Shown here piece after piece: positions 1,400 to 59,363 of a DNA stretch of 64,000 bases (position 1 is its first letter; every line of letters begins with the position of its first letter). The stretch is taken from the NCBI GenBank assembly GCA_046261835.1, contig JBHEOA010000176.1, forward strand, positions 8,588-72,587, read 5' to 3'. The DNA is from Gemmatimonadota bacterium. Its GTDB lineage: Bacteria; Gemmatimonadota; Gemmatimonadetes; JACCXV01; JAHWKZ01. The notes under the pieces were generated by a model. It searched no databases, had not been told where the DNA came from, and worked only from the letters and a program-made list of their open reading frames with translations. The translations under genes were made by a program, and so were the position numbers.

Positions 1400-2782
1400 A
1401 TGAGAGCAAGCTGGAAGCGGACCGCCCGGGCTCTGGCCCTGGCGGTCCTGGTCAGCGGGACGGCTGCGTGCGACTGGCTCATCAGCCCGACGGAGTCGAA
1501 CCCGAACGTCGTCGCCGACGCGACGCTCGACCAGCTGTTCGTGTCGGTCCAGCTCAACGCGTGGTTCATCGCCGAGGGCGATCTGAGCCGCTTCGCGGCC
1601 GTGTGGCTGCAACAGATGGCCGGGATGCAGGACCGGCAGTTCGGGCTCATCCACAGCTACGACATCGTGGAGGACGACGGCGGCGACGCCTTCAACACCA
1701 CCTACACGGGCGGCGGCCTCGTCGACATCGTGCGGGCGATCGATCTGGCCACCGAGCGCCCCGAGGCGGCCGGCCGGGTGTACGCCGGGATCCTCAAGGT
1801 CCATCAGGCGTTCATGATCGGGACCATCGCGAGCGTCCATGGCGACGTTCCCTTCTCCGAGGCGGTCAACCCCGAGATCGCCGAGCCCGCGCTCGACGAT
1901 CAGGCGGCGGTCTACGCCGCGGTCCAGGCCCTCCTGGACGAAGCGATCGCCGACCTCCAGAGCGGGGAGGGCGCCGGCCCGGGCGCCATCGACTTCTCGT
2001 TCGGCGGCAACGCCGCACAGTGGGTCGCCGTGGCCAACACGCTCAAGGCGCGCTTCCACGCTCACTGGATGGAGACGGACCCGGGCCGAGCCGCGCAGGT
2101 TCTCGCCGCGGCCAACAGCGGGATCCGTACGGCTGCCGGCAACTGGCGCGCGCTCCACTCGACGACCGCGACCGAGCAGAATCTCTGGAACCAGTTCATG
2201 GGGGACCGCCCCAACTACATCCAGGCGGGCGCGTTCCTCGTCGACCTGCTCCTGGCGCGAGACGATCCGCGGGTCGCGAAGTACTACGAGCCGAACGCGG
2301 ACGGCGAGTTCGTCGGCAGCCCCGTCAACGAGGAAGACGTGACCGCGTCGAACCTGGCGCTATGCGCGGGATGTGCGGGCGCCCAGGATTTCGGCTTCGT
2401 GCTCGCCTCGTGCGAAGAGAACGCCGGGCTGGCGGCCGAGGCGGCTTTCCGGCAGGGGGGCGCGGCGGCGGCCCAGCCGTGGATCGACGAGCTGATCCAG
2501 TGCTCGTCCACGTTCTGGGGAGTCGACGTTCCCCCGGCCCAGCAGCCGCTCACGCTCGAGGAGATCATCCTCCAGAAGTACATGGCGCTGTTCCTGAGCC
2601 ATGAGATCTGGAGCGACTACAAGCGGACGTGCTTCCCGGCGGTCGAGACGTTTGCGGGGAGGGAGATCCCCCGGCGGCTCTACTACCCCTTCGCGGAGCG
2701 CCAGGCGAATACGAACGTTCCCGAGCCCGCGGAGCAGGACGCACAACCGTTCAATGACAACGACCCGAACCCCTGTCCGTAG
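1400..2782 (+). CDS. SusD/RagB-family nutrient-binding outer-membrane lipoprotein
   Basis: ATG is preceded by GGAGGAGG. The signal peptide has a lipobox (LVSGTAAC). The gene is about 460 aa and sits directly downstream of the SusC-like gene. Confidence 0.75.
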   Translation: MRASWKRTARALALAVLVSGTAACDWLISPTESNPNVVADATLDQLFVSVQLNAWFIAEGDLSRFAAVWLQQMAGMQDRQFGLIHSYDIVEDDGGDAFNTTYTGGGLVDIVRAIDLATERPEAAGRVYAGILKVHQAFMIGTIASVHGDVPFSEAVNPEIAEPALDDQAAVYAAVQALLDEAIADLQSGEGAGPGAIDFSFGGNAAQWVAVANTLKARFHAHWMETDPGRAAQVLAAANSGIRTAAGNWRALHSTTATEQNLWNQFMGDRPNYIQAGAFLVDLLLARDDPRVAKYYEPNADGEFVGSPVNEEDVTASNLALCAGCAGAQDFGFVLASCEENAGLAAEAAFRQGGAAAAQPWIDELIQCSSTFWGVDVPPAQQPLTLEEIILQKYMALFLSHEIWSDYKRTCFPAVETFAGREIPRRLYYPFAERQANTNVPEPAEQDAQPFNDNDPNPCP

Positions 2783-2789
2783 GAGGGGA

Positions 2790-3167
2790 TTCGGGGGTCC
2801 AGCCCTTCGCTCCATCCTGCCGGTCGCGCTGTCGCTCGTGGCGGCATGCGCGACCGGCGTCGGGGCGGAGCGCCCCGCCCACCAGATCGTGGTCGAAGTC
2901 GTCAACGACCTCGTCCCACCCCGAAGTGTGACGATCCAGATGCTGGCCAGCGATCGTGTCACCCGCACGTTGGGAACGGTGGGAGCCGGGGAGACGCGCA
3001 GATTCTCGTTCCGCGAGCGATTGCTCGGCGGGGCCTACCGCATGACGGCCCGGATCGATCAAGGGAACGAGATGGCCTCGGAGGTCTTCACGCTCTTTCC
3101 GAACGCGCACGTCTTCTGGGACCTGAGAAGGAACCTCCTGACGGTCGGATCGCAGGGAGGGATGTGA
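2790..3167 (+). CDS. small secreted lipoprotein of unknown function (start codon unresolved)
   Basis: Protein-like translation with lipoprotein signal ...ALRSILPVALSLVAACATG, stop TGA at 3165-3167. AGGAGG lies at 2781-2786, but there is no in-frame ATG/GTG/TTG upstream of the signal peptide. The only candidates are CTG at 2817 or ATC at 2814. The alternative frame (2846 ORF) is Arg-rich junk. Confidence 0.45.
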   Translation, partial: FGGPALRSILPVALSLVAACATGVGAERPAHQIVVEVVNDLVPPRSVTIQMLASDRVTRTLGTVGAGETRRFSFRERLLGGAYRMTARIDQGNEMASEVFTLFPNAHVFWDLRRNLLTVGSQGGM

Positions 3168-3613
3168 GCCGCCTCGGGATCCTCGCGGTGGGATGCCTCG
3201 CCGTCGCCGGGTCGGCCTGCTACCGCTACACTCCCGTCGAGACGGACGCCCCGATCGAGCGCGGGAGGGCGATCCGTGCGTGGCTCGAGCGCCCGACGGA
3301 CGTCCGGCTGACCGAGCTCACCGCGAACGGGGCCCGCGAGGTGCGCGGCGAGGTGATCGGCTGGCGGGGCGACTCGCTGGCTCTGTCGGTCTTCTGGGTG
3401 GTGACGCAGACCCAGTACGAGCATCGGGGTCGGGGCGAGACCGTCCTGATCGCCGGCGACAACATCGCCCGGCTGGAGAAGAAGGAGATCGACCCCGCGC
3501 GCACCGGCGGCTTGACCGCCGGGATCGTCGCCCTGACGGCGGCCGCGGGCTATGCCGTTTCCGGGGGCGGCGGCGGAGACGAGGGCGACAACGGGGGAAT
3601 CCCGCCCCAGTAG
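3164..3613 (+). CDS. small secreted lipoprotein of unknown function
   Basis: GTG at 3164 overlaps the upstream stop (GTGA). Signal VSRLGILAVGCLAVAGSAC has a lipobox. The C-terminus is Gly-rich. Confidence 0.5.
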   Translation: MSRLGILAVGCLAVAGSACYRYTPVETDAPIERGRAIRAWLERPTDVRLTELTANGAREVRGEVIGWRGDSLALSVFWVVTQTQYEHRGRGETVLIAGDNIARLEKKEIDPARTGGLTAGIVALTAAAGYAVSGGGGGDEGDNGGIPPQ

Positions 3614-3634
3614 ATGGCGAGGAGGTCCGAGCCC

Positions 3635-5023
3635 ATGCTGGTGCGACAGGTCAAGACGAGGAATATCGCGTCGGCCTTCGTCGTAGGGCTTCTGCTGGCG
3701 GCGTGCGGCGGTCGCGACCTCGGCGAGAGCCCGGGCGCGGCGCTCGACGCCGAGCTCCTCCAGCTCATGAGCCGCGCTTCGGAGACCGGCGATCCCTCCT
3801 GGTTCGCGCTTCCCTCCCCCGACGAGTACGACCGGATCCCGCAGGATCCCAAGAACCCCTTGACGCGTGCCAAGGTCGAGCTGGGGCGGCTCCTGTTCCA
3901 CGATACGGCGCTCGAACGCGATCCGAGGCTGCCGCCCGGCGCGGGCAGGGTTTCGTGCGCGAGCTGCCACTTCGCCCAGGCGGGCTTCCAGGCGGGCATC
4001 CCCCAGGGAGTCGGAGAGGGGGCGTTCGGTTTCGGCCGCCGCGGCGAGCAGCGACGGATCGACGACAGCTATCCGCCCGATTCGGTCGACGTTCAGGCGT
4101 TCCGGACCCCGACCGTCCTCAACATAGCCTTCCAGATCGTCCTGGGCTGGTCGGGACAATGGGGCGCGGTGGGCCCCAACGTGGGGACCAAGTACTCGTG
4201 GATGGGGGGAGCGGCCCCGAACCGGCTAGGCTTCCAGGGCGTCGAGTCGCAGGCGATCGCCGCCCTCGACACCCACGGCCTCTCCGTAGAGGACGGCTTC
4301 TTCGACGAGCTGCCCGAATACCGGCGGCTCTTCGACGAGGCTTTTCCCGAGGTTCCCGAGTACCGGCGGTACACCGACCGTGTGGCGGCCCTGGCGATCG
4401 CGGCCTACCAGCGCACGGTTCTGACCAACCAGGCGCCCTTCCAGCGCTGGCTGCGGGGGGACCGGAGCGCCATGGCCACCCCCGAGAAGCGGGGGGCGGT
4501 CCTGTTCTTCGGCGAGGCCGGCTGCGTCACGTGCCACACGGGGCCCGCCCTCAACTCCATGCAGTTCGCCGCGCTCGGCATGAACGACCTGTATGACCGT
4601 CCCGACGTGATCGCTCCCTCGCATGCTCCGGACTCGCTGGCGCGCCGCGGTCGCGGAGGGTTCACCCGGCGGCCGGACGACGACTACGCCTACAAGGTCC
4701 CCCAGCTCTACAACCTCGCCGATTCGCCCTTCTACGGGCACGGAGCCTCCTTCACCAGCGTGCGCGAGGTCGTCGAGTACAAGAACCGCGCGGCGCCGCA
4801 GAAGCCGATTCCACGCGAGCGACTCGCGCCGGAGTTCCGGCCGTTGGGGCTGGACGACGGAGCGGTCACCGCGATCGTCACCTTTCTGAGCCGTAGCCTG
4901 CAGGATCCGAACATCGTCCGGTACGTACCGTCGAGCGTGCTTTCCGGCCGCTGCTTCCCCAACGACGACCCTCAGTCCCGGCTCGATCTCGAATGCCCGC
5001 CTCTCGAGACCACCTCGCGGTGA
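3635..5023 (+). CDS. di-heme cytochrome c peroxidase (CCP/MauG family), lipoprotein
   Basis: Two CxxCH heme motifs (CASCH, CVTCH). The size and spacing are typical of bacterial di-heme CCP. ATG at 3635 has GAGGAGG 9 nt upstream, and there is a lipobox (LLLAACGG). An alternative ATG lies at 3614. Confidence 0.85.
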   Translation: MLVRQVKTRNIASAFVVGLLLAACGGRDLGESPGAALDAELLQLMSRASETGDPSWFALPSPDEYDRIPQDPKNPLTRAKVELGRLLFHDTALERDPRLPPGAGRVSCASCHFAQAGFQAGIPQGVGEGAFGFGRRGEQRRIDDSYPPDSVDVQAFRTPTVLNIAFQIVLGWSGQWGAVGPNVGTKYSWMGGAAPNRLGFQGVESQAIAALDTHGLSVEDGFFDELPEYRRLFDEAFPEVPEYRRYTDRVAALAIAAYQRTVLTNQAPFQRWLRGDRSAMATPEKRGAVLFFGEAGCVTCHTGPALNSMQFAALGMNDLYDRPDVIAPSHAPDSLARRGRGGFTRRPDDDYAYKVPQLYNLADSPFYGHGASFTSVREVVEYKNRAAPQKPIPRERLAPEFRPLGLDDGAVTAIVTFLSRSLQDPNIVRYVPSSVLSGRCFPNDDPQSRLDLECPPLETTSR

Positions 5024-6711
5024 GGCGGGCGGCGGGTCTCGGCGCGGCCATCGCAGGGCTGGTCCTCGGCGGGTCCCCCGCCCTGGCGCAGGGATTCGAC
5101 GAGGTGGGCCGCGAGGCCGGGATCGACCACGTGGCCGTCGACCCCCACCGGATCGCGGGCGGGGTCGCCTTCTTCGACTACGACGGTGACGGCGACGACG
5201 ACCTGTGGCTCACGGGCGGGCGGAACCCCGATCGCCTCTACCGGAACCGTGGCGACGGCACGTTCGATGACGTCACCGAGGCGGCGGGCCTCGGCTTCCT
5301 CGCCGACATACCGACCGTCGGCGTCGTCACCGGCGACATCGACAACGACGGCGATCGCGACGTCTTCGTCACCACCTTCGAGGGATATCCCAACATCCTC
5401 CTGCGCAACGAGGGGGACGGCACCTTCACCGACGTCTCGGAAGCAGCGGGCGTGGCCGGGCCGCCGGTCTGGAGCACGGCGGCGGCCTTCGGCGACTACG
5501 ACCTCGACGGCTTCCTCGACCTCTACGTCGGCAACTACGCCACCTACGACGACCTGCCGTACGACGAGCACTTGACCGGCGGGATCCCCAACTTCCTCTA
5601 CCGCAACCGCGGCGACGGCACGTTCGAGGACGTCGCCGAGCGGCTCGGCGTGGACGATCCGGACGGCCTCGCGCTGGCAGTGGCGTTTACCGACTACGAC
5701 GGCGATGCCGACGTCGACATCTGGGTGGCCAACGACTTCGGGTACCTCTTCGAGGAGGACAAGCTCTACCGGAACGACGGGGGCCGCTTCGTCGAGGTGG
5801 GGGAGGAGCTGGGGGTCGACAACGAGATCAACGCCATGGGGATCGCCGCCGGCGACTATGACGAGGACGGCGACCTCGATTACTACGTCACCAACATGGC
5901 CCGGAACCGGCTGCACGAGAACCTCCAGCGCGGCCACGCGAGCGGGGAAGGAAGCGGTCGCTTCGTCGACGTCGCCCGCCAGAAGGGCCTGGACGACGAG
6001 TGGGCGACGAGCTGGGGGGCGGTGTTCGCCGACGTCGACAACGACGGGCACCTCGATCTGCTGCTGGCCAACGGGCGCGTGCTGCCGAGCTACAACATGG
6101 AGTACATGGACCACCTCCATCGGCTGGTGGAGCCGCACGCGAATCGCTTGTGGCGCGGTGACGGGAAGGGCGGCTTCGTGGAGGTTGCGAGCGAGATGGG
6201 GGTCGCCGACACGACGCGCGGACGCGGTCTCGCCTGGTCCGACATCGACGGTGACGGCGACGTCGACCTCGCGGTTTCGGTACTCGTTGTCGAGGGGCCG
6301 ACGATGGACCATGCGCTGCTGTACCGGAACGAGGGCCACCCCGGCCGCAATTGGCTCAACGTGCGGCTCCGAGGCACGTCGGCCAACCGGGACGCCTTCG
6401 GGAGCCGGGTGCGGGTCGTCGCGGCCGAACGCAGCCTGATCCGCGAGATCGACGGCGGATCGAGCTACCTCTCACAAAGCTCCAGCGTCGCCCACTTCGG
6501 TTTGGGCTCGCGCGCTGTCGCCGACAGCCTGGTCGTCACGTGGCCCGGCGGGAAGATCGAGGTCCTGACCGACCTTCCGGTGAACCGGACCGTCGAGATC
6601 GTCGAAGGTGTTCTGGCGGCGGGAGAACCGGCGCCCGAGACGCCGGGAAGCGAGTCGTGGGGCAAGACGCCGGCTGCCGAACCCGCCGAGCGGCGCCGGG
6701 TCGAGCCCTAG
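5020..6711 (+). CDS. FG-GAP/VCBS-repeat protein with C-terminal ASPIC/UnbV domain (CRTAC1-like), secreted
   Basis: Repeated FxDxDGDGxxD calcium-binding FG-GAP motifs. The C-terminus (...NWLNVRLRG...GSRVRV...SSYLSQSS...FGLG) is typical of ASPIC/UnbV. GTG at 5020 overlaps the CCP stop (GTGA) and gives a signal peptide. An alternative ATG is at 4993. Confidence 0.8.
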   Translation: MRRAAGLGAAIAGLVLGGSPALAQGFDEVGREAGIDHVAVDPHRIAGGVAFFDYDGDGDDDLWLTGGRNPDRLYRNRGDGTFDDVTEAAGLGFLADIPTVGVVTGDIDNDGDRDVFVTTFEGYPNILLRNEGDGTFTDVSEAAGVAGPPVWSTAAAFGDYDLDGFLDLYVGNYATYDDLPYDEHLTGGIPNFLYRNRGDGTFEDVAERLGVDDPDGLALAVAFTDYDGDADVDIWVANDFGYLFEEDKLYRNDGGRFVEVGEELGVDNEINAMGIAAGDYDEDGDLDYYVTNMARNRLHENLQRGHASGEGSGRFVDVARQKGLDDEWATSWGAVFADVDNDGHLDLLLANGRVLPSYNMEYMDHLHRLVEPHANRLWRGDGKGGFVEVASEMGVADTTRGRGLAWSDIDGDGDVDLAVSVLVVEGPTMDHALLYRNEGHPGRNWLNVRLRGTSANRDAFGSRVRVVAAERSLIREIDGGSSYLSQSSSVAHFGLGSRAVADSLVVTWPGGKIEVLTDLPVNRTVEIVEGVLAAGEPAPETPGSESWGKTPAAEPAERRRVEP

Positions 6712-6733: not shown

Positions 6734-8905
6734 CTACTCCGGTCGCCGCTGACGGTATCGCTCCAGGCTGTGCCTGAGCCGGTCGGCCAGGTCGCGAGCG
6801 CCGACCGCGGAAGCGAGCGCGAGCGCCCGCTCGGCCGTCTCCGCCGCGTGCCCGAACTCGCCGGCCGAAGCCTGCGCCGCGGCGAGGACGGCCAGGATGG
6901 CCGGGTCGGGCCGCTCGGTCAGCGCGGCGGCGCGCTCGGCGAGCCGCACCGCTTCGGCCGGCCTGCGGATCGCCGGGTCGGGATGTCGGGCGAGGAGCTC
7001 GGCCAGCGCAATGAGCGGGGCCGGCCAGCGGGGGTCCAGGCGGATCGCTTCACGCAGCTCGGCGATTGCCTCGGGGAACCGCCCTGTCGATCCCAGAGCG
7101 AACCCCAGCCCCAGCCTCGCGCGGGCGTCGTCGGGCTCGATTTCCAGCCCGCGCCGATAGTGCTCGATCGCCTCGGCAGGCTTTCCCCGCGCGCGAAGGA
7201 CCTCGGCGAGCCGCACGTGTGCGGGCGCGAGCTTCGGGTCGGCGTCGATCGCCAGGCGATAGAAGCGAATCGCCTCGTCCACCTCGCCCTTAGCCTCGAG
7301 CGCTATCGCGAGGTTGTGGCTCGCCCGGGCGTAGCCGGGATCGGTTTCGAGCGCCAGGCGGTAGTGCCGGACCGCCTCGTCGAGGCGTCCCACCGTCTGG
7401 AGGGCGATCCCCAGGTTGTTGTGTGCGCGCGCGTAGCGGGGGGCGAGCCGGAGCGCCTCCCGGTAGCGGGCGATCGCTTCCTCGTGCCGCCCCAGCGCCG
7501 CGAGCACCATCCCCAGCTCGTAATGCGCGCGTTCGTCTTCCGCCCGCCACCGGACCGCGGCCTCGAGTCCCTGGCGATGGATCGAGAGCGACTTGAGCCA
7601 TGCGACCCGCGCCAGCTCGGCCGATTCGTCAGGCTCTACCGCGACCACCTGGATCATGAGATCCGCCATCTCATCGGTCGAGTGAGGGCCGTAGCGGACG
7701 TGCTCGGGGGCCCGGCGCGGGTTGCGCGGATTGGCCGTCGAGTTGTCGTAGGTGTACCGCATCGTGAGGACGGTGCCGCGCGGCAGCCGCACCGGCTCGC
7801 GGTAGCGGTACTCGTCCTGCCAGTTGAAGTCCCAGCGCGGGATGTGGAGGAGCCAGCGCGTGCCGCCATCGGGAAGCACTGCGACGACTGACATCTCCTC
7901 GCCCAGGTAGTGGGCGTGCGGATAGAGCCCGAGCACCTCGACCTCGACCGGCAGGACCAGCGAATCCTCGACCGCGTAGGATCGCGCCCCCGGCGGGATG
8001 TCGAGCGATTCCGATCCCAGCCGCAGGAGGACCGCCGTGCGGGCCGGCGGACGCTCGGCGAAGTGGAGGCCGACCTGCCCTCGCACCGCCGCCGGCCGCT
8101 CGATCGGCCGGAGGTGGAGCTGAAGCACGAGGTCGCTCCCCCGCTCGAGCCGCCAGGCTATGTCGGGGGGGATGCGCGTCGGCACCTTCCCGGGGGTCCA
8201 GCCGAGGAAGAATCCGGTCGGCTGGCGCGCCTCGCTCGCCGGTCCCATGCCGTCGAATCCCGGTCCCGGGTCCTCGCTGTCCCGCCGGCGGGACGAGTCG
8301 CTCGGATCGACCATGAGCGTCGCGTGGTGAACGAGCTTAGGAGCGTCGAACCTGAGCTCGACCGCCTCGACCCACCGATCGGTCTCGATCGGGACCGCGA
8401 TCACGAAGTTGCGGAACTCTTCGTGTGCGCCCGCCTCGCCGTGCTCGCCCATGACCGGATAGGGTTCCGGCATGGCGACCACGAGATCGGGCTCGCCGAG
8501 CTGCCACCCCCCGGGGAACTCGGGCGGGAGGGGCTCCTCGGCGGGATCGCCCCGCGGCATGCCCGCCTCAACCCACCGACGTATCGCCTCGATCGCTTCG
8601 TCGGTCAGCCGCCGCTCGTTGGCGAACGCGTGCCGGGGCCGATCGGGGAGCCAGGGCGGCATGACGCGCGCCTGCGTCAACGCGGCGATCAGGGGACCGC
8701 GGGCACGGGCGTCTTCATAGGACAGAAGGTCGAACGGCGCCGGGCCCTCGGGGCGATGGCAGACCGCGCAGTTCCGGTAGAGGATCGGTGCGATGTCGCG
8801 GGCGAAGGTCGGCTCGTCGCCGGGCGGCTTCCAAGCGGCGAGCGCTACGGAAGCCACGGCGGGCGCGGCGACGAGGAGGAGACGTGCGATCCGGGGAGGT
8901 TTCAC
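6734..8905 (-). CDS. secreted fusion protein: N-terminal cytochrome c domain (CxxCH), copper type-II monooxygenase (PHM/DBH C-terminal)-like domain, C-terminal TPR repeats
   Basis: CAVCH heme motif. The central region (...HAHYLGEEM...WDFNWQDEY...YTYDNS) resembles the Cu2-monooxygenase C-terminal fold. The C-terminus has many 34-aa TPR repeats. GTG at 8905 gives a textbook signal peptide (KPPRIARLLLVAAPAVASVALA). The maximal ORF extends to 9022. Confidence 0.7.
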   Translation of the reverse strand: MKPPRIARLLLVAAPAVASVALAAWKPPGDEPTFARDIAPILYRNCAVCHRPEGPAPFDLLSYEDARARGPLIAALTQARVMPPWLPDRPRHAFANERRLTDEAIEAIRRWVEAGMPRGDPAEEPLPPEFPGGWQLGEPDLVVAMPEPYPVMGEHGEAGAHEEFRNFVIAVPIETDRWVEAVELRFDAPKLVHHATLMVDPSDSSRRRDSEDPGPGFDGMGPASEARQPTGFFLGWTPGKVPTRIPPDIAWRLERGSDLVLQLHLRPIERPAAVRGQVGLHFAERPPARTAVLLRLGSESLDIPPGARSYAVEDSLVLPVEVEVLGLYPHAHYLGEEMSVVAVLPDGGTRWLLHIPRWDFNWQDEYRYREPVRLPRGTVLTMRYTYDNSTANPRNPRRAPEHVRYGPHSTDEMADLMIQVVAVEPDESAELARVAWLKSLSIHRQGLEAAVRWRAEDERAHYELGMVLAALGRHEEAIARYREALRLAPRYARAHNNLGIALQTVGRLDEAVRHYRLALETDPGYARASHNLAIALEAKGEVDEAIRFYRLAIDADPKLAPAHVRLAEVLRARGKPAEAIEHYRRGLEIEPDDARARLGLGFALGSTGRFPEAIAELREAIRLDPRWPAPLIALAELLARHPDPAIRRPAEAVRLAERAAALTERPDPAILAVLAAAQASAGEFGHAAETAERALALASAVGARDLADRLRHSLERYRQRRPE

Positions 8906-9024
8906 GGGAGGGGTGCTCGCGCGAGGGTCCAAGCCAACTTTCGCTTCGACAAGATAACCCGGCGGAGGGGTCCTCGCCTGCGCGCGGCCGCGGTCCATGC
9001 TTCCGTTGCAGTCACGGCCCATCT

Positions 9025-12000
9025 ATGTTGTCCCGCGACTTGAGACTCCCTCACCTTCGCTCTCTCGGCTGGAGCGCGGCCGCCTGGGTTTTCTTCTGTC
9101 CGCCGGCTGCGGCCCAGGTGGCTCCCGACCACGCCTGGCGGACGGTCGAGACCGCTCACGTCCGCGTCACGTATCCCGCCCCCCGCGATTCGCTGGGAGA
9201 GCGAACTGCGCGCGCGGCCGAGCGGGCGTGGGAGGGATTGGCCCGGCTGGCGCCGCCGCCGGGGGGGCGGGTCGAGGTCGTCCTATCCGACGACGTGGAC
9301 GTCGCCAACGCATTCGCCTCGGTTTCCCCCTATCCCTGGATCGTGGTCTACGTCCACCCCCCCTATGACAACCTCGACCTGGCCGAATACTCCGATTGGC
9401 TCGAGGTCGTCCTGGCCCACGAGATGGCCCACATCGTCCACCTCGACCAGGCGCGCGGGCTCGGCCGCTTCCTGCGGCAGATCTTCGGTCGAATCCCGGC
9501 CGCGGGTTGGCCGCTGTTCCCGCACGTCACCACACCGACCTGGACGATCGAGGGGCTGGCGGTCCGGTACGAGACCGCGCTGACGGGAAGCGGCCGGCTC
9601 GCGGGGACGGTCACGGAGATGATCGTCCGGGCCGCGGCGGTCGAGGACGAGATCCCCGATCTCGGGTTCGTGACCGGCGATCCCGCGGTGTGGCCGGCCG
9701 GGAACACGCGCTACGCCTTCGGCGGCGAGTTCCTCGGCTGGCTGGCCGCGCGGCACGGCGACGAAGCGTTCGAGCAGTACGTCCGGGAGCTCGCGGGCGA
9801 CCCGCTCCCGTTCCGCGTCGATCGCGCCGCCGAGCGCGCATTCGGCGTCACGTTCTCGGATGCGTGGGAGGCGTGGCGGGTCGAGGCGACCGCGCGCAAT
9901 CGAGCGGCGGCCGACTCGCTGGCGCGCGTCGCTCCGCTCACCCGTGCCGAGCGGCTCATGAACCACGCATACTGGGCGCTCTGGCCGCGCTGGTCCCCCG
10001 ACGGCGCGACGATCGCCTACGCCGCGTACGACGGCCGCCGCGACGTCCACCTGGCGCGGATCGACGCCGGGTCGGGCGCGGAGATCGGCTCGACCCGCGT
10101 ACCGGGTCTGGGGGTGCCCTCGTGGCGATCCGACGGATCGCTGGTCGTGGGCGGCTTCCAGTGGCAGGGGCCCTATCGCCGGTGGGACGACCTTTGGGTC
10201 ATCCCCGGCGAGGGGCCGGCGCGACCGCTGACCGACGCGGCGCGCCTCTCCCATCCCGATGTCGGCCCCGGCGGGGCGATCGTGGCGGTCCAGACGGAGG
10301 CCGGCACCAATCGGCTGGTCGTGCTGGAGCCCGGGAACGGCGAGCCACGGGCGGTCACGGCGCTCGATGCCGGCGTTCACTGGGCATGGCCGCGCTGGTC
10401 TCCCGACGGATCGCGAATCGCGGTCTCGCGGTGGCGCGGCAGGGGCTTCGACGTCGTGGTTCTCGACCCCGCCGGCGGGCTGGAACGCGAAATCGCGGCC
10501 GACGGAGCGCTGAACCTCGCCCCTGCCTGGTCCCCCGACGGCGGGTGGCTCGTCTTCGGATCCGACCGGACCGGGATCGCCAACCTCTACGCCTTCGATC
10601 TCGGGGGGCGCCGCGGGCTCCGCCAGGTTACCCATGTTGGCGGGGGCGCGTTCTTCCCGGACGTCTCACCCGACGGGCGCTGGATCGCCTTCGCCGGCTA
10701 TCACCACGACGGCTGGGCGATCGAGCGTGTGCCGTTCGATCCGGCGGCATGGTTCGACCCCCACCCGGCACGAGACGCGAGCATCCCACGCGCGTGGAGC
10801 GCTGCATCTACCGGGAGTCTCGCGGCGGCCCCCTCCGACGTTCTGCCATCCCGCCGCAAGCAGGAACCGATCCACGTTTCGGTGCCGCGCCCCTACGCGC
10901 CGTGGCCCACCCTGGTGCCGCGCTACTGGCTCCCGATCGTGGAAGCCGGCGAGGAGGTGCGGGGAAGGGAGCTCCTCGGCCCCGGCGTCGGCGCGGCCAC
11001 GTCCGCCGTCGACGCGGTCGGGCGTCACGCGTACGGGGCGGCCTCCACGGTCGACGTGGAGCACGGTCGGGTCGAGGCCTTCGTCCGGTACAGGAATGCG
11101 GTGCTCGGTCGCCCGATCCTCGATCTCACGGCCGCTCAGACCTGGGAGTTCGCGGGGTTCGCCTTGCCGGCTTCGGAGGAGGAGACGGCGCAGCCGGGCG
11201 ATACCCTGTTCGCTCTCGGACGCAACCGCGAGATCGCTCTCTTTGCCACCATCCCCTTCCGTCATCCCTTTCGCTCCGCGACGCTCGCGATGGGGGCGGG
11301 GTTGCTCGAGGAGCGCCTCGTCCTGCTCGAGCCCGATCTCACGGAGAGCCGCCGGTTCCGCCTCGACGACCCCAGGGCGCTCCTTCCCGAGGCGTTTGGT
11401 TCGGGGACCTTCTCGACCGCGCGCACCTTCGCCTTCTCGATCAGCCCCGAGAACGGCATCGCGGGCTCGGCCAGGGGGGAGTGGCGCTTCGACCCGGCCG
11501 AGGAGAATCGCGCTCGCCGCGAGGCGACCGCGCAGGTCGCGGTCTACCGGGCGCTCGGGCGACCGTGGGGGTTCGCGCGCACGGTGGCGGCCCTCCGCGC
11601 GAGCGGCGGAGTGGTGCGGGGGCTCGGTGCGGGCGATGGCCACTTCGCGCTCGGCGGAGCGAGCGGCGAAGGGCTTGGGGTCGCAGGGTTGACCGGCCTG
11701 GGCGCGCAACGGTTCCTGCTCCCGGTGCGTGGGTACGTCCGCGGCGAGCGGCGCGGCCGTACGGCGTGGTCGGCGAGCGCCGAGATCCGCTTTCCGCTCG
11801 CGCTGCTCCAGAAGGGATGGGGGCTCCGGCCGCTCTTCCTCGACCGGCTGGCGGGGACGGTCTTCGTCGACGCCGGCGATGCCTGGGATCCGTGCCGCCC
11901 CGGCGCGGAGTGCACCGCGTCGCTGGAGCCTCTCGTGTCGAGCGGCGTGGAGCTGCTCCTCGATGTGACCGTCTTCTACCGGCTGCCTCTCACGCTGCGG

Positions 12001-12832: not shown

Positions 12833-14227
12833 TTAGCGCGGTGCCGGAGCGGGGAAGACGACCACGCTTTCGTGCCCGTCCTTGTCGACCGATGCGACGC
12901 CGAAGAACCAGTTGTCAACGACCAGGTTCTCCACCACCGCTTCGGTCGCCTTCCCCACCCATCGCCAGTGGTTCCAGGTCGGGGAGTCGGTGCGGCGCCA
13001 GTACACCTTGTAACCGGCGAGGGCGGGATCGGAGACCGGCGCCCAGGAGAGCCGCGCCGAGGGCTCGACCGCTCCCGCGATCATCACCGAATCGGGTGGG
13101 GCCGGGGCCCATGCCAGCGAGGCAAGCGTCGCGACGTTGAGCGCCGTCACCGCCGCCGCGTAGTCGAACTCGACTTCGTCCGGAACGTCGCCGTACTCGA
13201 CCCCGTCCTCGACCCGGAGGTCCTGGTGCTGGCGCCGCCAGTCCTCGTGAGCCTCGGTCAACCGGACCGCCGGAAAGCCCAGGTCGTTGAACGGACGATG
13301 ATCGCCTCCACGCCCGAAACGATCGAGGCGGTAGATCATCATGACGTCCAGGTTGGAGAAATACCGTTCCGCGATCCGGTCGACATAGCGCGCGAGCTGA
13401 CGGGAAGGTCCGTCGACCTCGCCGCCGTAGAACCGCAACTGACGCAGGTTGTCCGGTGTGGTCGTGGCCGGCGGGCTCTCCGAAAAGACGCGGACGGTGG
13501 TCCCGTCGACGACGCCGTCCTGGCCCTGGATGTTGCCGATGATGTCGTTGTTGAAGACGCCTTCGATGCGCCAGCCTTCCTGATGGGCGACCTCGGCCAG
13601 GTGCTGACCGCCGTAGAGGCCCTGCTCCTCACCGGCCAGGGCGGCGAAGACGATCGAGGCTCCGTAAGGACGTCCCGCGGAGGTCAGAACGCGCGCCGCC
13701 TCGAGCACGGCGGCGGTGCCGCTGGCATCGTCGTTGGCGCCCGGGGCGTCGCTGGTCGCGTCCAGAGCATCGGTGGCGCGCGAATCGTAATGGCCGCTGA
13801 TGACGAGCACGCGTTCGGGGTCGCGGGACCCGCGCAGCGTGGCGACGACGTTGACGACCCACGTGGGCCGCGGGATCCGCGCGCCGCTGTCGACGAGCGA
13901 GCGATGGTATTCAACTTCGAGGCAGCCGCCGCACGCCGCTGAGACGCGATCGAGCTCGGCCTTGATCCAGCGACGGGCCGCGCCGATGCCCCGCGTTTCG
14001 CTCGTCGTGTCGCTCAACGTGTGGCGCGTGCCGAACGCGGCGAGCGTCCGGATGTCGTGTTCGATTCGCGCCGCCGAGACAGAGTCGATGATCGCGCTCA
14101 GCCGCTCGTCACTCAGCGGCGGCACCGTCTCTTGGGCGGACGCCAGCGGCGGCAGGACGAGGCACGCGGCCGCGGCGATCGCCGCTGCCTCCGGGAAGAC
14201 GAAGTAGACGATGCGCCCCAATGACAT
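12833..14227 (-). CDS. M28-family zinc aminopeptidase with C-terminal fibronectin type III-like domain, secreted
   Basis: Signal peptide present. Motifs HYDS, DDASG, GEEQGLYG and DH are typical of M28 peptidases. The C-terminus (...YKVYWRRTDS...) is FN3-like. Confidence 0.85.
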   Translation of the reverse strand: MSLGRIVYFVFPEAAAIAAAACLVLPPLASAQETVPPLSDERLSAIIDSVSAARIEHDIRTLAAFGTRHTLSDTTSETRGIGAARRWIKAELDRVSAACGGCLEVEYHRSLVDSGARIPRPTWVVNVVATLRGSRDPERVLVISGHYDSRATDALDATSDAPGANDDASGTAAVLEAARVLTSAGRPYGASIVFAALAGEEQGLYGGQHLAEVAHQEGWRIEGVFNNDIIGNIQGQDGVVDGTTVRVFSESPPATTTPDNLRQLRFYGGEVDGPSRQLARYVDRIAERYFSNLDVMMIYRLDRFGRGGDHRPFNDLGFPAVRLTEAHEDWRRQHQDLRVEDGVEYGDVPDEVEFDYAAAVTALNVATLASLAWAPAPPDSVMIAGAVEPSARLSWAPVSDPALAGYKVYWRRTDSPTWNHWRWVGKATEAVVENLVVDNWFFGVASVDKDGHESVVVFPAPAPR

Positions 14228-22376: not shown

Positions 22377-22592
22377 ATGCCTCGCAAGAAGACCTGTCAC
22401 TTCTGCGAAAGCAAGGTCTCGATCGACTACAAAGACGAAATGCTCCTTCGCCGATTCACCAACGATCGTGGCAAGATCTTGCCGCGGCGGGTCAGCGGAA
22501 CTTGCGCCAAGCACCAACGGGAGCTGGCGGTGTCGATCAAGCGGGGGAGGTTTTTAGCCCTGATCCCTTACGTCCCCGACCACGCCGGGTAG
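22377..22592 (+). CDS. rpsR: 30S ribosomal protein S18
   Basis: [13 protein letters not shown]...DYKD...LRRF is the canonical S18 sequence. Confidence 0.9.
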
Positions 22593-22594
22593 GT

Positions 22595-22713
22595 GGGCCG
22601 CTGAAATTGACGAATCTCTGCGTTGCGTTTCGTCGGCCTCCCTGCGGCGTAGGATTTCCTACGCCTCGGGAAGCCTCCTCGCGCGCCTTGACCTTCGTCA
22701 ATTTGAGCGGCCC
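22595..22713 (+). repeat. structured intercistronic repeat element, copy A (about 119 nt, closed by an 18-bp stem)
   Basis: 5' arm GGGCCGCTGAAATTGACG pairs with 3' arm CGTCAATTTGAGCGGCCC. The interior carries conserved ATCTCTGCGTTGCG...CGTCGG, a hairpin GCGTAGGA-TTT-CCTACGC, and CGCGCGCCTTGACCT. Two further copies are at 39409 and 43468. Confidence 0.6.
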
Positions 22714-22788
22714 ACCGCGGTACTGGGGCCATCCCTTCGCGTGGTTGGGGACATGATCGCACCGTCGCGGTCGCGGGGAGGTGAGTTC

Positions 22789-36325: not shown

Positions 36326-36774
36326 CACCCGGCAACGCGCGCGAGGCTGCTCTCGACCGCTTCCGGAACCACCTCCGTGGCCGCGGTCATCCGGTGACTC
36401 CGCAGCGGATGCGAGTCGCCGAGGTGCTGTTCGGAACCCACCATCACATCTCCGCGGAAGAGATCCTGGCGAGGCTTCGCGCAGGACGCCGTCCGGTAGG
36501 GAAAGCGACCGTATATCGCACGCTCGATCTCATGCGCGAGGCGGGGCTCATTCGAGAGCATGACTTCAATGAGGGCTTCAAACGCTACGAACCGCGTCCC
36601 ACGCGCCCGCATCATGAGCATCTGGTCTGCACGCGCTGCGGCAAGGTCATCGAGTTCGTGTCTCAAGCGATAGATCGAGTGGAGTCCGAGGTGGCCGCTC
36701 TGCATCATTTCCTTCCGACACACCACCGGGTCGAGATCTACGGCCTATGCGAGGAATGCCGTGAGGATCGTTGA
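36322..36774 (+). CDS. fur: Fur-family metalloregulator
   Basis: VTPQRMRVAEVLF helix-turn-helix region. HHH and HHEHLVC...C metal site. C-terminal CxxC (CEEC). Confidence 0.8.
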   Translation: MTPGNAREAALDRFRNHLRGRGHPVTPQRMRVAEVLFGTHHHISAEEILARLRAGRRPVGKATVYRTLDLMREAGLIREHDFNEGFKRYEPRPTRPHHEHLVCTRCGKVIEFVSQAIDRVESEVAALHHFLPTHHRVEIYGLCEECREDR

Positions 36775-37819
36775 CCTTGCAGCAGTCGCGGGCACGCCCG
36801 AGATTCGGCCGTTCGTGCGCGCGACATCCTTCACTGCTCTCGCGATCGTGGCGTTCCTCGGAATCGTCGCGCCGTCGCCTGTGGCCGCTCAGGACGAGAT
36901 CGATGACGATTCGGGGCTCATCGGTCTGAGTCTACCGCTGGGCGCGCGCGCGATCGGGCGTGGACGGGCGATCTCGGCCACCGCCGGCGAGCTCCAGGCG
37001 CTGCCATACAACCCGGCGGCGGTCATGGGCCTCGGGCGAGGTGCCTTGACGTACAGTCGCTTCGAGGCGGCCGACGACGCGGAATTCAACGGCAATTATC
37101 TCGCTGCCGGCGCCGACACGCGCTGGGGAACGGTCGCTATCCAGGTGATCTACTTGGATTACGGCGATGTGCCTGTCACCGAAACGTCGCCCGATCCAGT
37201 TGGCTCGATCGAGATCAGCGATTGGGCGCTCGGCGCGACCTACGCCAACCGGATCTACGGCGAGAAGCTGGCCTACGGCGCCACCCTGAAGTGGCTGTCC
37301 ACCAACCTCGGTTCGATCGACGCCAGCGGTCCCGCGCTCGACGCCGGGCTGGTTTATTCGCCGCGATCGGGCCTGCCCCTGACCTTGGGCATCGCCCTGC
37401 GAAATCTGGGGCCGGATCTCGATTTCGGGGGGACGACGGAAGGTGAGGATGCACAAGGCGAGGAAGCCCTCCCGTCGCGCGTGCGCGTGGGGGTCGACTA
37501 CCGACCGACGACCTTCCCTGGCCTCCCCTCCGACTACGCGATCGAGCTCGGATTCGACATCGAGAGCGATCTCCGCGATCTCGCGACCTCCAGCCAGCAC
37601 GCCGGCGCGTCGATCACGATCCATCAGATCGTCGTCGTCCGCGGGGGCCTGCTCCTGCTCGACAATCCCTACGCCAGAGGGAGCACCGCCAACCGGATAA
37701 CGGGGGGCGCCGTCGGAGTCGGCGTCCGCTTCGGCGGGTTCGAGGCCGACGTCGCGCGCGAGATCTCGGTGAGCGAGCTGGGCGACGAAACGCACTTCGC
37801 GGTCGGATGGCGATTCTGA
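36761..37819 (+). CDS. outer-membrane beta-barrel protein (PorV/PorQ/UPF0164-like), C-terminal Phe
   Basis: Signal peptide (an alternative GTG start at 36812 is also possible). Alternating amphipathic strands. GARAIGRGRA motif. Ends ...FAVGWRF. Confidence 0.6.
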   Translation: MRIVDLAAVAGTPEIRPFVRATSFTALAIVAFLGIVAPSPVAAQDEIDDDSGLIGLSLPLGARAIGRGRAISATAGELQALPYNPAAVMGLGRGALTYSRFEAADDAEFNGNYLAAGADTRWGTVAIQVIYLDYGDVPVTETSPDPVGSIEISDWALGATYANRIYGEKLAYGATLKWLSTNLGSIDASGPALDAGLVYSPRSGLPLTLGIALRNLGPDLDFGGTTEGEDAQGEEALPSRVRVGVDYRPTTFPGLPSDYAIELGFDIESDLRDLATSSQHAGASITIHQIVVVRGGLLLLDNPYARGSTANRITGGAVGVGVRFGGFEADVAREISVSELGDETHFAVGWRF

Positions 37820-38858: not shown

Positions 38859-39407
38859 ATGGCCTTCGTGGCGAAGGAGCTCTTCCTGACCCGCGGCGTC
38901 GGCCGGCATCGCGAGAAGCTGGCCTCGTTCGAGCTCGCGCTGCGCGACGCGCAGATCGCCGAATACAACATCGTGCGGGTCTCGAGCATCTTCCCCCCGG
39001 GATGCAAGCTTATTCCGATGAAGGAAGGCGTGAGGAAACTGACAGCGGGCCAGGTCCTGTTCACGGTGGTCGCGGAGTCGTCGACCGACGAACCCCACCG
39101 GCTGATCGCCTCGTCCATTGGCGTGGCGATCCCACGCGACGAGACGCACTACGGCTATCTCTCGGAACACCACTCTTACGGCCAGACCGACGAGGAAGCG
39201 GGCGACTACGCTGAGGACCTCGCCGCGCAGATGCTTGCCACCGTGCTCGGTGTCCAGTTCGATCCCGATGCCGCGTGGGATGCGCGGAAGGAAGTGTGGC
39301 GAATCTCCGAGGAGATCGTTACGACGCGCAACATCACGCAGTCGGCGGTGGGGGAGAAGAGTGGGTTGTGGACCACAGTAGTCGCCGCCGCTGTCCTGAT
39401 AGACTGA
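38859..39407 (+). CDS. pdaD: pyruvoyl-dependent arginine decarboxylase
   Basis: AGGAGG Shine-Dalgarno. About 180 aa. VRVSSIFPPG contains the Ser-Ser self-cleavage site typical of PdaD. Confidence 0.8.
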   Translation: MAFVAKELFLTRGVGRHREKLASFELALRDAQIAEYNIVRVSSIFPPGCKLIPMKEGVRKLTAGQVLFTVVAESSTDEPHRLIASSIGVAIPRDETHYGYLSEHHSYGQTDEEAGDYAEDLAAQMLATVLGVQFDPDAAWDARKEVWRISEEIVTTRNITQSAVGEKSGLWTTVVAAAVLID

Positions 39408-39408
39408 C

Positions 39409-39526
39409 GGCCGCTGAAGATGGCGCATCTCTGCGTTGCCCTTCGTCGGACTTCATTGCGGCGTAGCCCATACTACCCCTCATTCGTCCTCCTCGGGCGC
39501 CTTGATCTGCGCGATCTTGAGCGGCC
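39409..39526 (+). repeat. structured intercistronic repeat element, copy B
   Basis: 5' arm GGCCGCTGAAGATGGCGC pairs with 3' arm GCGCGATCTTGAGCGGCC. It shares ATCTCTGCGTTGC...CGTCGG and CGGGCGCCTTGATCT with copies A and C. It lies between pdaD and the speB GTG at 39589. Confidence 0.6.
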
Positions 39527-42144: not shown

Positions 42145-42720
42145 GTGTCATCCAACCGCATCATCCGCTGGACCGCCGCGATCGTAACGGCCGGGTCGAT
42201 CGCCGCTTGCGGTGACGATCAGACGTCCGACTCCGCCGGCCGCAGGAGCGGCTACTCGCCGATCCGGCCGGCGCCCGAATTCGAGCTGGAGACGCTCGAC
42301 GGCGACACGCTGACATTGGCCGATCTGGGCGACCGGAAGGCGATCCTCATGAATTTCTGGGCCTCGTGGTGCTTCCCTTGCAAGGCGGAGATGCCCGAGC
42401 TGATCGCCCTCCACGAGGAGTACGACGAGAAAGGGCTCGCCGTGCTCGGCGTGACCGTCAACGACCTTCCACGCGACTCACGCGCCTTCGTCGCGGAGAT
42501 CGCTGTTCCTTATCCCTCCGTGATCGGCACGCCCGCCATGCTGGAGGCATATGGCATCTCTCCGTGGCTACCCACCACGATTCTGGTCACGGACGGACAG
42601 GTCGTACGCGAATGGGTGGGACCGCAGACCCGTAAAGAGCTCGACTACTCGATTCAGGTGGCGCTCGGCCTGGCGAGCCCCGTAGGCCTGCCGGAGGAGG
42701 ATCCCGCGGGTGGGCGGTGA
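42145..42720 (+). CDS. TlpA/ResA-like thiol:disulfide oxidoreductase lipoprotein (thioredoxin fold)
   Basis: Lipobox (SIAAC). WCFPC active site. Confidence 0.8.
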   Translation: MSSNRIIRWTAAIVTAGSIAACGDDQTSDSAGRRSGYSPIRPAPEFELETLDGDTLTLADLGDRKAILMNFWASWCFPCKAEMPELIALHEEYDEKGLAVLGVTVNDLPRDSRAFVAEIAVPYPSVIGTPAMLEAYGISPWLPTTILVTDGQVVREWVGPQTRKELDYSIQVALGLASPVGLPEEDPAGGR

Positions 42721-43465
42721 GCTTTCGGTGGTGGTCGCTTTTCTGGCGGGTGTCGTCTCGTTCCTCAGCCCGTGCGTCCTACCGCTTTTCCCATCGTATC
42801 TCTCGTTCGTCACTGGCCTCACGTTCGACGAGCTGGCTACTCCGGACCCGGCGGCCCGATCGCGCGTGCGACGCCTCACGGTCGTCCATTCGCTCCTCTT
42901 CATCCTGGGCTTCATGCTGGTCTTCATCGCCCTCGGCGCCTCGGCCACGGCGGTGGGACAGTTCATGCGCTCGAATCAAGGGTGGATCCGTCGCGTGGCT
43001 GGTGTGGTCATCGTGCTCTTCGGGCTCCACATCGCGGGCGTCTTCCGTCTTGCCTTCCTCCAGCGCGAGAAGCGCATCCACCTCCAACAGCGCCCCGCCG
43101 GGATGCTGGGGTCGGTGGTCGTTGGGTTCGCGTTCGGCGCTGGTTGGACGCCGTGCATCGGCCCGATCCTGGGTGCCATCCTCACGATGGCGGGAACGAG
43201 CGGGCAGCTTTCGACCGGAGTCCTGCTCCTCTTCGCCTACGGTCTGGGCCTCGGGGTCCCGTTCTTCGTTGCGGCGATCGGATTCAGCGGATTTCTCACC
43301 GGGTTCAAACAGGTTCGTGTCTGGCTGCGGCCGATCGAAGTGGCGAGCGGCGTGGTCCTGATTGCGGTGGGGATCCTCATCTTCACTAATTACTTCGCGG
43401 TGCTCGCGGCGATGCTGAATCGGTGGATTCTCCCCTTATTCCCATTCATCTCCGAAAACATTTAG
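42710..43465 (+). CDS. ccdA: cytochrome c-type biogenesis protein CcdA (DsbD-family thiol-disulfide transporter)
   Basis: Six transmembrane helices with the two conserved Cys (LSPCVLP and GWTPCIGP). Overlaps tlpA by 11 nt. Confidence 0.85.
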   Translation: MGGELSVVVAFLAGVVSFLSPCVLPLFPSYLSFVTGLTFDELATPDPAARSRVRRLTVVHSLLFILGFMLVFIALGASATAVGQFMRSNQGWIRRVAGVVIVLFGLHIAGVFRLAFLQREKRIHLQQRPAGMLGSVVVGFAFGAGWTPCIGPILGAILTMAGTSGQLSTGVLLLFAYGLGLGVPFFVAAIGFSGFLTGFKQVRVWLRPIEVASGVVLIAVGILIFTNYFAVLAAMLNRWILPLFPFISENI

Positions 43466-43467
43466 GG

Positions 43468-43619
43468 GAGGCGGCTGAAAACGGCGAATTCTCTGCGTTG
43501 CGTTCCCTCGGCCTTCCTGCGGCGCACATTTCAGTGCGCCTCGGATGACCTCAGTCGCGCGCCTTGATCTTCACCGTTTTGAGCCGCCTCGAGTGACCTC
43601 GGTCATTTTGAGCGGCGCC
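43468..43619 (+). repeat. structured intercistronic repeat element, copy C (core 43468-43590 plus a partial duplicate of the 3' arm to 43619)
   Basis: 5' arm GAGGCGGCTGAAAACGG pairs with 3' arm CCGTTTTGAGCCGCCTC. Internal TTCTCTGCGTTGCG, hairpin GGCGCAC-ATTTCA-GTGCGCC, and CGCGCGCCTTGATCT. An extra CATTTTGAGCGGCGCC follows. Confidence 0.6.
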
Positions 43620-43746
43620 TGGTAGTTAACGGAAGAGCGAGAGGGGCGCGGCGGACGGATGAGGGATGCGCGTGGCGGGAGCCGGTGCGCTCTCGGTACA
43701 TTGCCGCCGCTGGCGTGGTCGGCGGCTCGCGACGCGTGGGGGACTC

Positions 43747-59226: not shown

Positions 59227-59360
59227 GACGCGGCGTGGGGGAAGGTCCCGACGAGACGTTAAAACTCGGTCGAAGTTGGCAAGGCAGGAATGAGTACCGC
59301 GATCGGGATCTTAGAAGGCCCACGGCAGCGTCTCGTCGGGGCCTTCCCCCACGACGCTTC
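59227..59360. repeat. large imperfect inverted repeat (about 32-bp arms, about 70-nt AT-richer loop) between convergent genes
   Basis: Core arms GGGGGAAGGTCCCGACGAGACG (59237-59258) and CGTCTCGTCGGGGCCTTCCCCC (59329-59350) with one mismatch. Flanking partial complementarity extends the arms. It ends 4 nt from the carD stop. Confidence 0.5.
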
Positions 59361-59363
59361 CGA

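Follow-up and report, generated by a model that had tools for sequence, protein, structure and literature searches.

The closest described counterparts of the element reported here are the palindromic repeats that lie between the genes of other bacteria; the element itself is a hairpin-forming repeat of about 120 bases, present three times in a 64,000-nucleotide stretch of a Gemmatimonadota contig (JBHEOA010000176.1, positions 8,588 to 72,587; the whole of this stretch is called the window throughout). REPINs are mobile DNA, made up of many extragenic copies of a hairpin of ca. 100 nt with two conserved regions and a variable tip (PMC3116915). They form long hairpins in single-stranded DNA (ssDNA) or mRNA, compensatory changes are common in them, and an asymmetric intermediate has been proposed to pair with a complementary target sequence (PMC3116915). 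Their copies flank a single-copy RAYT gene, coding for a Y1 transposase, of the same genome (PMC5581495). REPINs are also reported to persist vertically for millions of years. The ERIC/IRU and Correia elements are imperfect palindromes of ca. 100 to 150 bp, co-transcribed with their flanking genes, and at gene 3' ends ERIC and Correia elements alter the mRNA via RNase E or RNase III (PMC10969869).

The element described here appears to be a new family of this familiar kind, with a few unusual traits, and not a dedicated regulatory RNA. Our preferred reading, to which we give a probability of roughly 0.55, is a non-autonomous, mobile or formerly mobile, palindromic DNA repeat of the REP/REPIN-ERIC-MITE kind (MITE, miniature inverted-repeat transposable element) that is co-transcribed with its host genes. 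The unusual traits are the proximity to stop codons, a conserved asymmetric core within variable ends, and the near-identity of orthologous copies across saturated synonymous divergence. The host phylum comprises abundant soil bacteria for which we know of almost no described mobile or regulatory non-coding elements. Another system relevant to the comparison is the IS200/IS605 group of insertion sequences (IS), which use a strand-specific folded substrate and insert in a specific orientation next to a short target that is not duplicated. The target is recognised by pairing with the DNA of the element, as Barabas et al. reportedly described in 2008.

The repeat and its family

The window holds exactly three copies, all on the plus strand, at 22592-22716 (A), 39409-39526 (B) and 43468-43590 (C), the limits being set by extending the stems to the last paired base. 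An earlier sequence-only reading of this DNA had placed three same-strand copies between cistrons, in the direction of their host genes and downstream of rpsR, pdaD and ccdA. The copies are real, they are so placed, and the gene names agree with Pfam. One 12-mer of the core, TCTCTGCGTTGC, has three mismatch-free occurrences in the 64-kb window, where ca. 0.008 would be expected by chance, and the aligned copies have a mean column identity of 79% with long invariant blocks. A covariance model made from 17 family seeds scored them at 113-123 bits (E ca. 1e-25) on the plus strand and at only 22-28 bits on the minus strand, so that the element has a defined polarity; with the filters off, the model found no further copies in the window. 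Matches of ca. 15 bits on both strands at 59235-59423 are probably due to chance or to an unrelated palindromic stretch. Each copy folds as one long rod, with RNA free energies of -70.7 (A), -53.8 (B) and -63.0 (C) kcal/mol and z-scores of -9.35, -5.0 and -6.5, respectively; none of 200 shuffled sequences folded equally well. With DNA parameters, A (z of -9.2) and C (-4.5) are outliers, while B, the inner part of which is eroded, has a z of -2.1.

With the covariance model, the census stands at 26 family copies (E from 1e-9 to 1e-28). The carriers are metagenome-assembled genomes (MAGs) of Gemmatimonadota and MAGs labelled Rhodothermales, Geobacter and Deltaproteobacteria. Scanning one genome per species with the 5' core gave four Gemmatimonadota MAGs with a single copy and one with three, a Rhodothermales-labelled MAG with six, and one copy each in a Geobacter-labelled and a Deltaproteobacteria-labelled MAG; a metagenome scan added six copies and the syntenic loci of relatives four sites. 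Some MAGs hold several nearly identical copies. For the window itself, a database DUF2232 protein with 100% identity to its own is assigned to Gemmatimonadota, as are the nearest named PvlArgDC matches, while an exact look-up of its S18 protein gave no record. It should be noted that the collection scans used exact core patterns, so that the sample is biased towards intact cores, and that related copies within the 26 are not independent observations. No family members were found among viral contigs or plasmids, and blastn gave no match in the complete E. coli genome collection (5,426 genomes). Rfam had no match to the window at gathering thresholds and only chance-level ones to copy A at E values up to 10, and literature searches with the element sequence itself and for Gemmatimonadetes REP elements returned nothing relevant. 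By these searches the family is new, as had been claimed: a previously uncatalogued hairpin-forming repeat of ca. 120 bases. Contig ends are involved in the retrieved loci that we number L003, L008, L014, L019, L042 and L066: several copies are no more than 300 nt away from such an end, and one contig begins just downstream of the rpsR site. This suggests that assemblies break at the repeat and that copy numbers are underestimated.

Anatomy and compensatory change

From the outside to the inside, the element consists of an outer stem of 7-12 bp, a G-G opposition, an inner stem of 11 bp, an asymmetric core, a covarying helix and an apical hairpin. The core is conserved and has internal loops; its 5' arm reads ATCTCTGCGTTGC..T.C.TCGG and its 3' arm CGCCTTGAYCT. 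The opposition of two Gs, already described for the window copies, is found in all three of them and in every Gemmatimonadota-type copy, and the pairs on both its sides covary. The parts of the window copies, all on the plus strand, and the stop codons ahead of them are as follows. Their neighbours by Pfam run, in order, S6, S18, copy A, DUF2232 and L9; PvlArgDC, copy B and the arginase family; AhpC/TSA, DsbD_TM and copy C.

22592..22716, + strand: copy A, whole hairpin, between rpsR (S18) and the DUF2232 gene; covariance-model score 119.9 bits
22590..22592, + strand: TAG stop codon of rpsR (open reading frame [ORF] 22377-22592, Ribosomal_S18); outer-stem pairing starts at its G
22592..22602, + strand: copy A, 5' arm of the outer stem, GGTGGGCCGCT, pairing with 22706-22716
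22603, + strand: copy A, conserved G opposed to G22705, unpaired in every fold
22604..22614, + strand: copy A, 5' arm of the inner closing stem, AAATTGACGAA, pairing with 22694-22704; the same arm is found in the orthologous copy of L065 (9806-9951)
22615..22636, + strand: copy A, conserved 5' core, TCTCTGCGTTGC..T.C.TCGG, with invariant columns in 17 sequences
22646..22665, + strand: copy A, apical hairpin, GGCGTAGG-ATTT-CCTACGCC, which varies and covaries family-wide; three of the five pairs of this helix changed on both sides
22680..22693, + strand: copy A, conserved 3' core, CGCGCGCCTTGACC, with the invariant columns CGCCTTGA..CT
22694..22704, + strand: copy A, 3' arm of the inner closing stem, TTCGTCAATTT, from sequence and fold
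22705..22716, + strand: copy A, opposed G (G-G opposition) and then the 3' arm of the outer stem, AGCGGCCCACC, from sequence and from RNA and DNA folds
39409..39526, + strand: copy B, complete element, flanked by pdaD and the arginase-family gene; covariance-model score 113.1 bits; outer stems intact, inner part eroded
39405..39407, + strand: TGA stop codon of pdaD (ORF 38859-39407, PvlArgDC), one base ahead of copy B
39428..39449, + strand: copy B, conserved 5' core, from sequence and invariant columns
39497..39507, + strand: copy B, conserved 3' core, GCGCCTTGATC, from sequence and invariant columns
43468..43590, + strand: copy C, complete element, flanked by ccdA (DsbD_TM) and, downstream, a small gene; covariance-model score 122.8 bits
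43463..43465, + strand: TAG stop codon of ccdA (ORF 42710-43465, DsbD_TM), two bases ahead of copy C
43490..43511, + strand: copy C, conserved 5' core, from sequence and invariant columns
43559..43569, + strand: copy C, conserved 3' core, GCGCCTTGATC, from sequence and invariant columns
43591..43620, + strand: second 3'-end fragment, GACCTCGGTCA then TTTTGAGCGGCGCC, directly after copy C

Complementarity is kept while the letters change. Over the 26 copies, 94.2% of the cells (one pair in one copy) are standard pairs, against 77% in shuffled data and 30-45% when the partner is slid by 1-3 columns, and 151 cells have changed on both sides, against 44 and 13-21, respectively. The outer stem is the most variable part, with eight of its nine pairs changed on both sides. 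The compensated change seen earlier in the three window copies thus extends to the whole family. Within the window, the inner stems ATTGACG/CGTCAAT (A) and AAACGG/CCGTTT (C) and the flip from C-G to G-C are as had been described, but copy B has an internal G-G mismatch; likewise, the apical hairpin covaries between A and C but is degraded in B. This hairpin is variable across the family, and some members carry extra small palindromes. The copy at 5110-5269 of L025 has complementary palindromic inserts in both arms (ACCCGCGAAGCGGGT and ACCCGCTTCGCGGGT); at 9806-9951 of L065, only the 5' arm has an insert, which is related to these and sits at the equivalent position; and in L003 (124-270) and L019 a different small palindrome is inserted within the arms.

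The changes are almost purely of the Watson-Crick type, with 542 such cells in the variable helices, 7 G-T, 19 A-C and 25 others. For a structure under selection in mRNA, one would expect G-U to be tolerated on the plus strand and A-C to be avoided. The consensus folds have 38 G-U and 43 A-C oppositions on the plus strand and 43 and 13, respectively, on the minus strand. When the plus strand is counted by lineage group, with near-identical copies collapsed and one invariant U-G left out, A-C leads G-U by 28 to 10. That U-G lies in the core and is invariant on the plus strand. In 24 of the 26 copies, folding (as RNA) is more favourable for the strand antisense to the host mRNA, by a mean of 8.5 kcal/mol. 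Because G-U is scarce and A-C the commoner of the two on the plus strand, the complementarity seems to belong to the DNA or to the opposite strand. Several readings of the core were tried and rejected: a hammerhead core (CUGANGA) could be matched by eye to copy B alone and is not supported by Rfam; those of a K-turn and of a site for IHF were dropped after inspection by eye; and that of a promoter has a -35 box (TTGACC) without a -10 box, the promoter scan being negative.

Placement, turnover and host sequence

Outside the Rhodothermales-labelled MAG, a co-oriented ORF ends between -7 and +11 nt from the first model position in 19 of 21 copies, and these ORFs are coding-like, with a G+C content at third codon positions of 0.76-0.96. 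Among the stop-adjacent Gemmatimonadota copies, 19 of 20 are co-oriented with the upstream gene; the exception is the L022 copy, which is inverted, its other end adjoining the stop of an amidohydrolase gene that is convergent. In L059 and L025 the stop is the TGA within the conserved CTGAA, and so the 5' outer arm is coding sequence. TAG accounts for about half of the stops at filled junctions and TAA for none, while TGA dominates in the empty orthologous sites (these counts, and those of stem extension below, were made by eye on the listed sequences). The Rhodothermales-labelled copies are 19-74 nt from gene ends, at least one of them behind a convergent BacA gene and in the opposite orientation. 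All copies are extragenic or overlap the last codons only, and the host genes are unrelated (S18, PvlArgDC, DsbD_TM, FUR, RibBA, amidohydrolase and others). At element sites, the genes natively overlap (by up to 14 nt) or are separated by no more than ca. 40 nt, so that stop adjacency may partly reflect where insertions survive. The asymmetry, with the upstream stop nearby and the next start 9-76 nt away, is nevertheless consistent and calls for a further explanation. No T-run or U-tract follows the copies and the terminator scan calls none of them, no sigma-70 promoter was called at them by the promoter scan, and the tails from the three window copies to the next genes have no significant structure. 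The GC skew of the window is too weak for a leading or lagging assignment. In L059, the publicly called ORF after FUR (2684-3892) has 402 aa, versus 342-353 aa in relatives, and runs across the inserted element; the repeat can thus mislead gene callers.

Syntenic loci, retrieved via homologues of PvlArgDC and the DUF2232 gene, revealed filled, empty and eroded versions of the same sites. The pdaD/arginase site is filled in the window and L062 and empty in L056, L059/L060/L063 and L061. In L055, the closest relative of the window, a 40-nt remnant of the 5' half (TGACGTCCGCTGAGATGACGCATCTCTTCGTTGCGCTTCGGCT, 6136-6175) makes up the whole pdaD/arginase spacer. The ccdA site is filled in the window only and empty in L055, L056, L059 and L062; in L055, ccdA and its neighbour overlap as TAATG (10078-10082). 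A site after FUR is filled only in L059/L060, and another only in L062. Tandem fragments of the 3' arm follow copy C and are also found in L008 (three times) and L042 (twice). Because copies are gained, lost and eroded behind unrelated genes, the family behaves as an interspersed repeat and not as a motif tied to a pathway. Two sequences of L061, a solo 5'-arm-like one in a spacer (GCAGGCTGCTGAAAGTG, ca. 8895-8925) and a possible decayed copy after ccdA (12858-12900), may be footprints of lost elements. At the rpsR site, the window and L065 have a copy, whereas L064 and L067 have none. The two copies have in common the unusual inner stem AAATTGACGAA and a one-base deletion matched on both arms, and their outer 28 + 31 bases are identical, while the third codon positions of rpsR are only 59% identical between the window and L065 and the flanking spacers cannot be aligned.

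The FUR site shows where an outer stem can come from. The empty alleles, ...GAGGATCGTTGA in the window and ...GAGGATCGCTGA in L055, encode E-D-R-stop. In L059, the same host bases, GAGGATCGATGA, are the 5' outer arm of the element, the 3' end of which (TTGATCGATCCTC) is the reverse complement of GAGGATCGATGA with the usual G-G opposition kept. Nine nucleotides later, a diverged second copy of the segment, GAGGATGGTTG, now supplies the start of the next gene. A comparable duplication of overlapping gene ends was found at the site filled only in L062. Such overlaps are native to the region: in the window, FUR and the next gene share 14 nt (36745-36775) and the next pair 13 nt (37800-37815), and where the element has inserted, the overlap segment sits on both its sides. 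The duplications seen are only old ones of overlapping gene ends, of at least 11 nt and at two sites. Across the family, the outer stem continues for at least 3 bp past the shared 7-mer in 7 of 19 copies, often including bases of the stop codon, with ca. 0.5 expected by chance. Because the stem takes in host bases, at least part of the outer-stem "covariation" is the 3' arm matching host DNA, which points to a mechanism and not to gradual compensatory change. We also considered whether a 3-bp duplication of the target, TGA, is centred on the G-G opposition, and discarded this because the variants are complementary and not identical (CGA/TGG, TGG/CGA).

Interpretation and comparison with known systems

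If the family is a palindromic DNA repeat, as we favour, the hairpin would be maintained at the DNA level, possibly by arm-to-arm templating, by template-switch correction of quasi-palindromes, by fold-back or by pairing of an arm with the target at insertion. The asymmetric core would be recognised by a putative protein acting in trans, with its gene elsewhere in the genome; most plausibly, this is an ssDNA transposase of the kind that moves REPINs. In the tightly packed and often overlapping operons of Gemmatimonadota, presumably only insertions after the stop and in one orientation survive. Once co-transcribed, the element would give a very stable stem-loop without a U-tract, which could be a barrier to 3' exonucleases, a substrate of RNase III or a partial terminator and might uncouple the flanking cistrons.

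Several observations weigh against this reading. No transposase or RAYT gene was found beside any copy, and a RAYT-like motif is absent from the window and 69 loci. There is no regular target-site duplication, the similarity from flank to flank being no higher than between unrelated copies. The combination of a conserved interior with the most variable termini is the reverse of classical MITEs and REP doublets. The host origin of the outer stem is proven cleanly at one site only. An orientation bias of 19 to 1 is what a function in mRNA would predict, and the near-identity at the rpsR site points to an old copy under purifying selection or to two insertions of one variant at a hot spot. Finally, the spread across phyla rests on MAG binning labels that may be wrong.

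The two points on orientation and on the rpsR site are the main reasons why a functional RNA stays alive as an explanation, namely, a dedicated cis-acting RNA of operon mRNAs in which the plus-strand rod behind the stop is selected in the transcript. Its role might be in processing or stability, as an attenuator, as a site for an RNA-binding protein (core and G-G opposition) or in coupling termination to reinitiation by looping out. Besides the 19 co-oriented copies out of 20 and an rpsR-site pair conserved far above the synonymous level, it would account for the strong covariation, for the conserved asymmetric core with a G-G opposition between covarying pairs and for the one core U-G kept invariant on the plus strand. 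We nevertheless consider it unlikely. G-U intermediates are nearly absent from the variable helices, A-C outnumbers G-U on the mRNA strand and the antisense is the better folder in 24 of 26 copies; close relatives differ in which sites hold a copy, and copies decay where they sit, behind host genes that share nothing; the L022 copy is reversed with respect to the gene that it abuts; and the Rhodothermales-labelled copies are 19-74 nt away from gene ends, with at least one opposite to a convergent gene. The sequence-only reading had taken covariation as favouring a functional RNA over a MITE-like element. That step is not supported, given the almost purely Watson-Crick compensation, the better antisense fold and the empty, filled and remnant sites; moreover, REPINs, which are mobile DNA, also show compensatory change in long hairpins (PMC3116915).

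The strand complementary to the coding strand being the better folder, together with the unpaired opposition at a fixed position, Watson-Crick complementarity as expected of DNA and a start right after ORFs, as in attC, would also suit a structured ssDNA site for recombination or for a DNA-binding protein that is not itself a transposon (like attC, or like the REP/BIME sites bound by gyrase or IHF). Such a site is improbable in our view: the window copies have no RYYYAAC or GTTRRRY boxes, the elements are scattered in housekeeping operons with no cassette arrays and no integrase nearby, and their interior is the most conserved part, the opposite of attC. Reiterated intrinsic terminators would explain a very stable G+C-rich hairpin right after stops, also between the convergent genes of L021, L007 and L022; we hardly credit this, since no T-run follows the window copies, the terminator scan is negative, the S18/DUF2232-L9 and pdaD/arginase operons need read-through downstream, and the role would not explain a core sequence conserved across lineages. 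We are doubtful, though somewhat less sceptical than of these last two, of a new insertion mechanism or, alternatively, a domesticated element of "operon punctuation". By the former, a hairpin would land at the stop codon in a fixed orientation, with its outer stem rebuilt at each site from the terminal bases of the host, one arm being either paired with the target or templated on host DNA by fold-back, and overlapping gene ends would be routinely duplicated so that both genes survive. By the latter, selection would keep the element for very long periods at orthologous sites, where the looped-out rod would preserve or tune the coupling of cistrons.

Whichever of these applies, the covariance model lets annotators mask or label ca. 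120-bp hairpins that mislead gene callers and probably break assemblies. Should the placement at stops and the host-derived stem result from the chemistry of insertion, the family would offer a readily studied example, outside Proteobacteria, of ssDNA transposition by target pairing. If it is selection that keeps the copies, the setting of relative expression within operons by such elements would be widespread in a phylum without canonical U-tract terminators at these sites.

Compared with the known systems, the family has the G+C-rich hairpin of an intrinsic terminator and lacks the U-tract. Like integron attC sites, it is an imperfect palindrome right after an ORF in which structure is conserved rather than outer sequence, with fixed unpaired bases and better folding of the strand complementary to the coding strand; it differs in the boxes, which are absent from the window copies, and in its housekeeping neighbours without cassette arrays or an integrase nearby. 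In attC sites the interior is the least conserved part, while here it is the most conserved one. IS200/IS605 elements, compared beyond their description by a motif scan only, have two subterminal hairpins and TnpA, whereas this family is a single rod without a gene, and the host pairing that it implies is ca. 10 nt instead of 4 nt. As classical MITEs, the copies are small, non-coding, multicopy and insertion-polymorphic. The sequence-only reading had named identical terminal inverted repeats (TIRs) with target-site duplications as the mark of a MITE; here the ends vary and no regular duplication was found, so this is not a textbook MITE. Neither conserved TIRs shared with a parent IS nor a fixed short target-site duplication was seen, and a solo-TIR search of the retrieved loci gave no full-length parent element with matching ends. 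A MITE known from Geobacter, Chunjie, measures 178-235 bp and has direct repeats as well as conserved TIRs; it is a different family.

Closer likenesses are found among the palindromic repeats. Like ERIC and Correia elements, the copies are imperfect palindromes in transcribed intergenic regions at gene 3' ends; unlike them, they have variable termini, no TA or other regular duplication and a host of a different phylum, and there is no sequence similarity. REPINs differ in that their conserved regions lie at the ends, while the conserved blocks of ca. 20 nt lie here inside variable ends, form only a loose, imperfect inverted pair and are neither of them a short palindrome of the REP type; the family is also tightly placed at stop codons and biased in orientation. 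With the conserved blocks internal and no RAYT seen in the window or the 69 loci, membership of the REPIN-RAYT system cannot be claimed. In other respects the family resembles REPINs: it is an extragenic, multicopy, long hairpin with compensatory change, remnants (in L055 and after copy C), one arm matching the host, and long retention, with an orthologous copy kept across the deep divergence between the window and L065.

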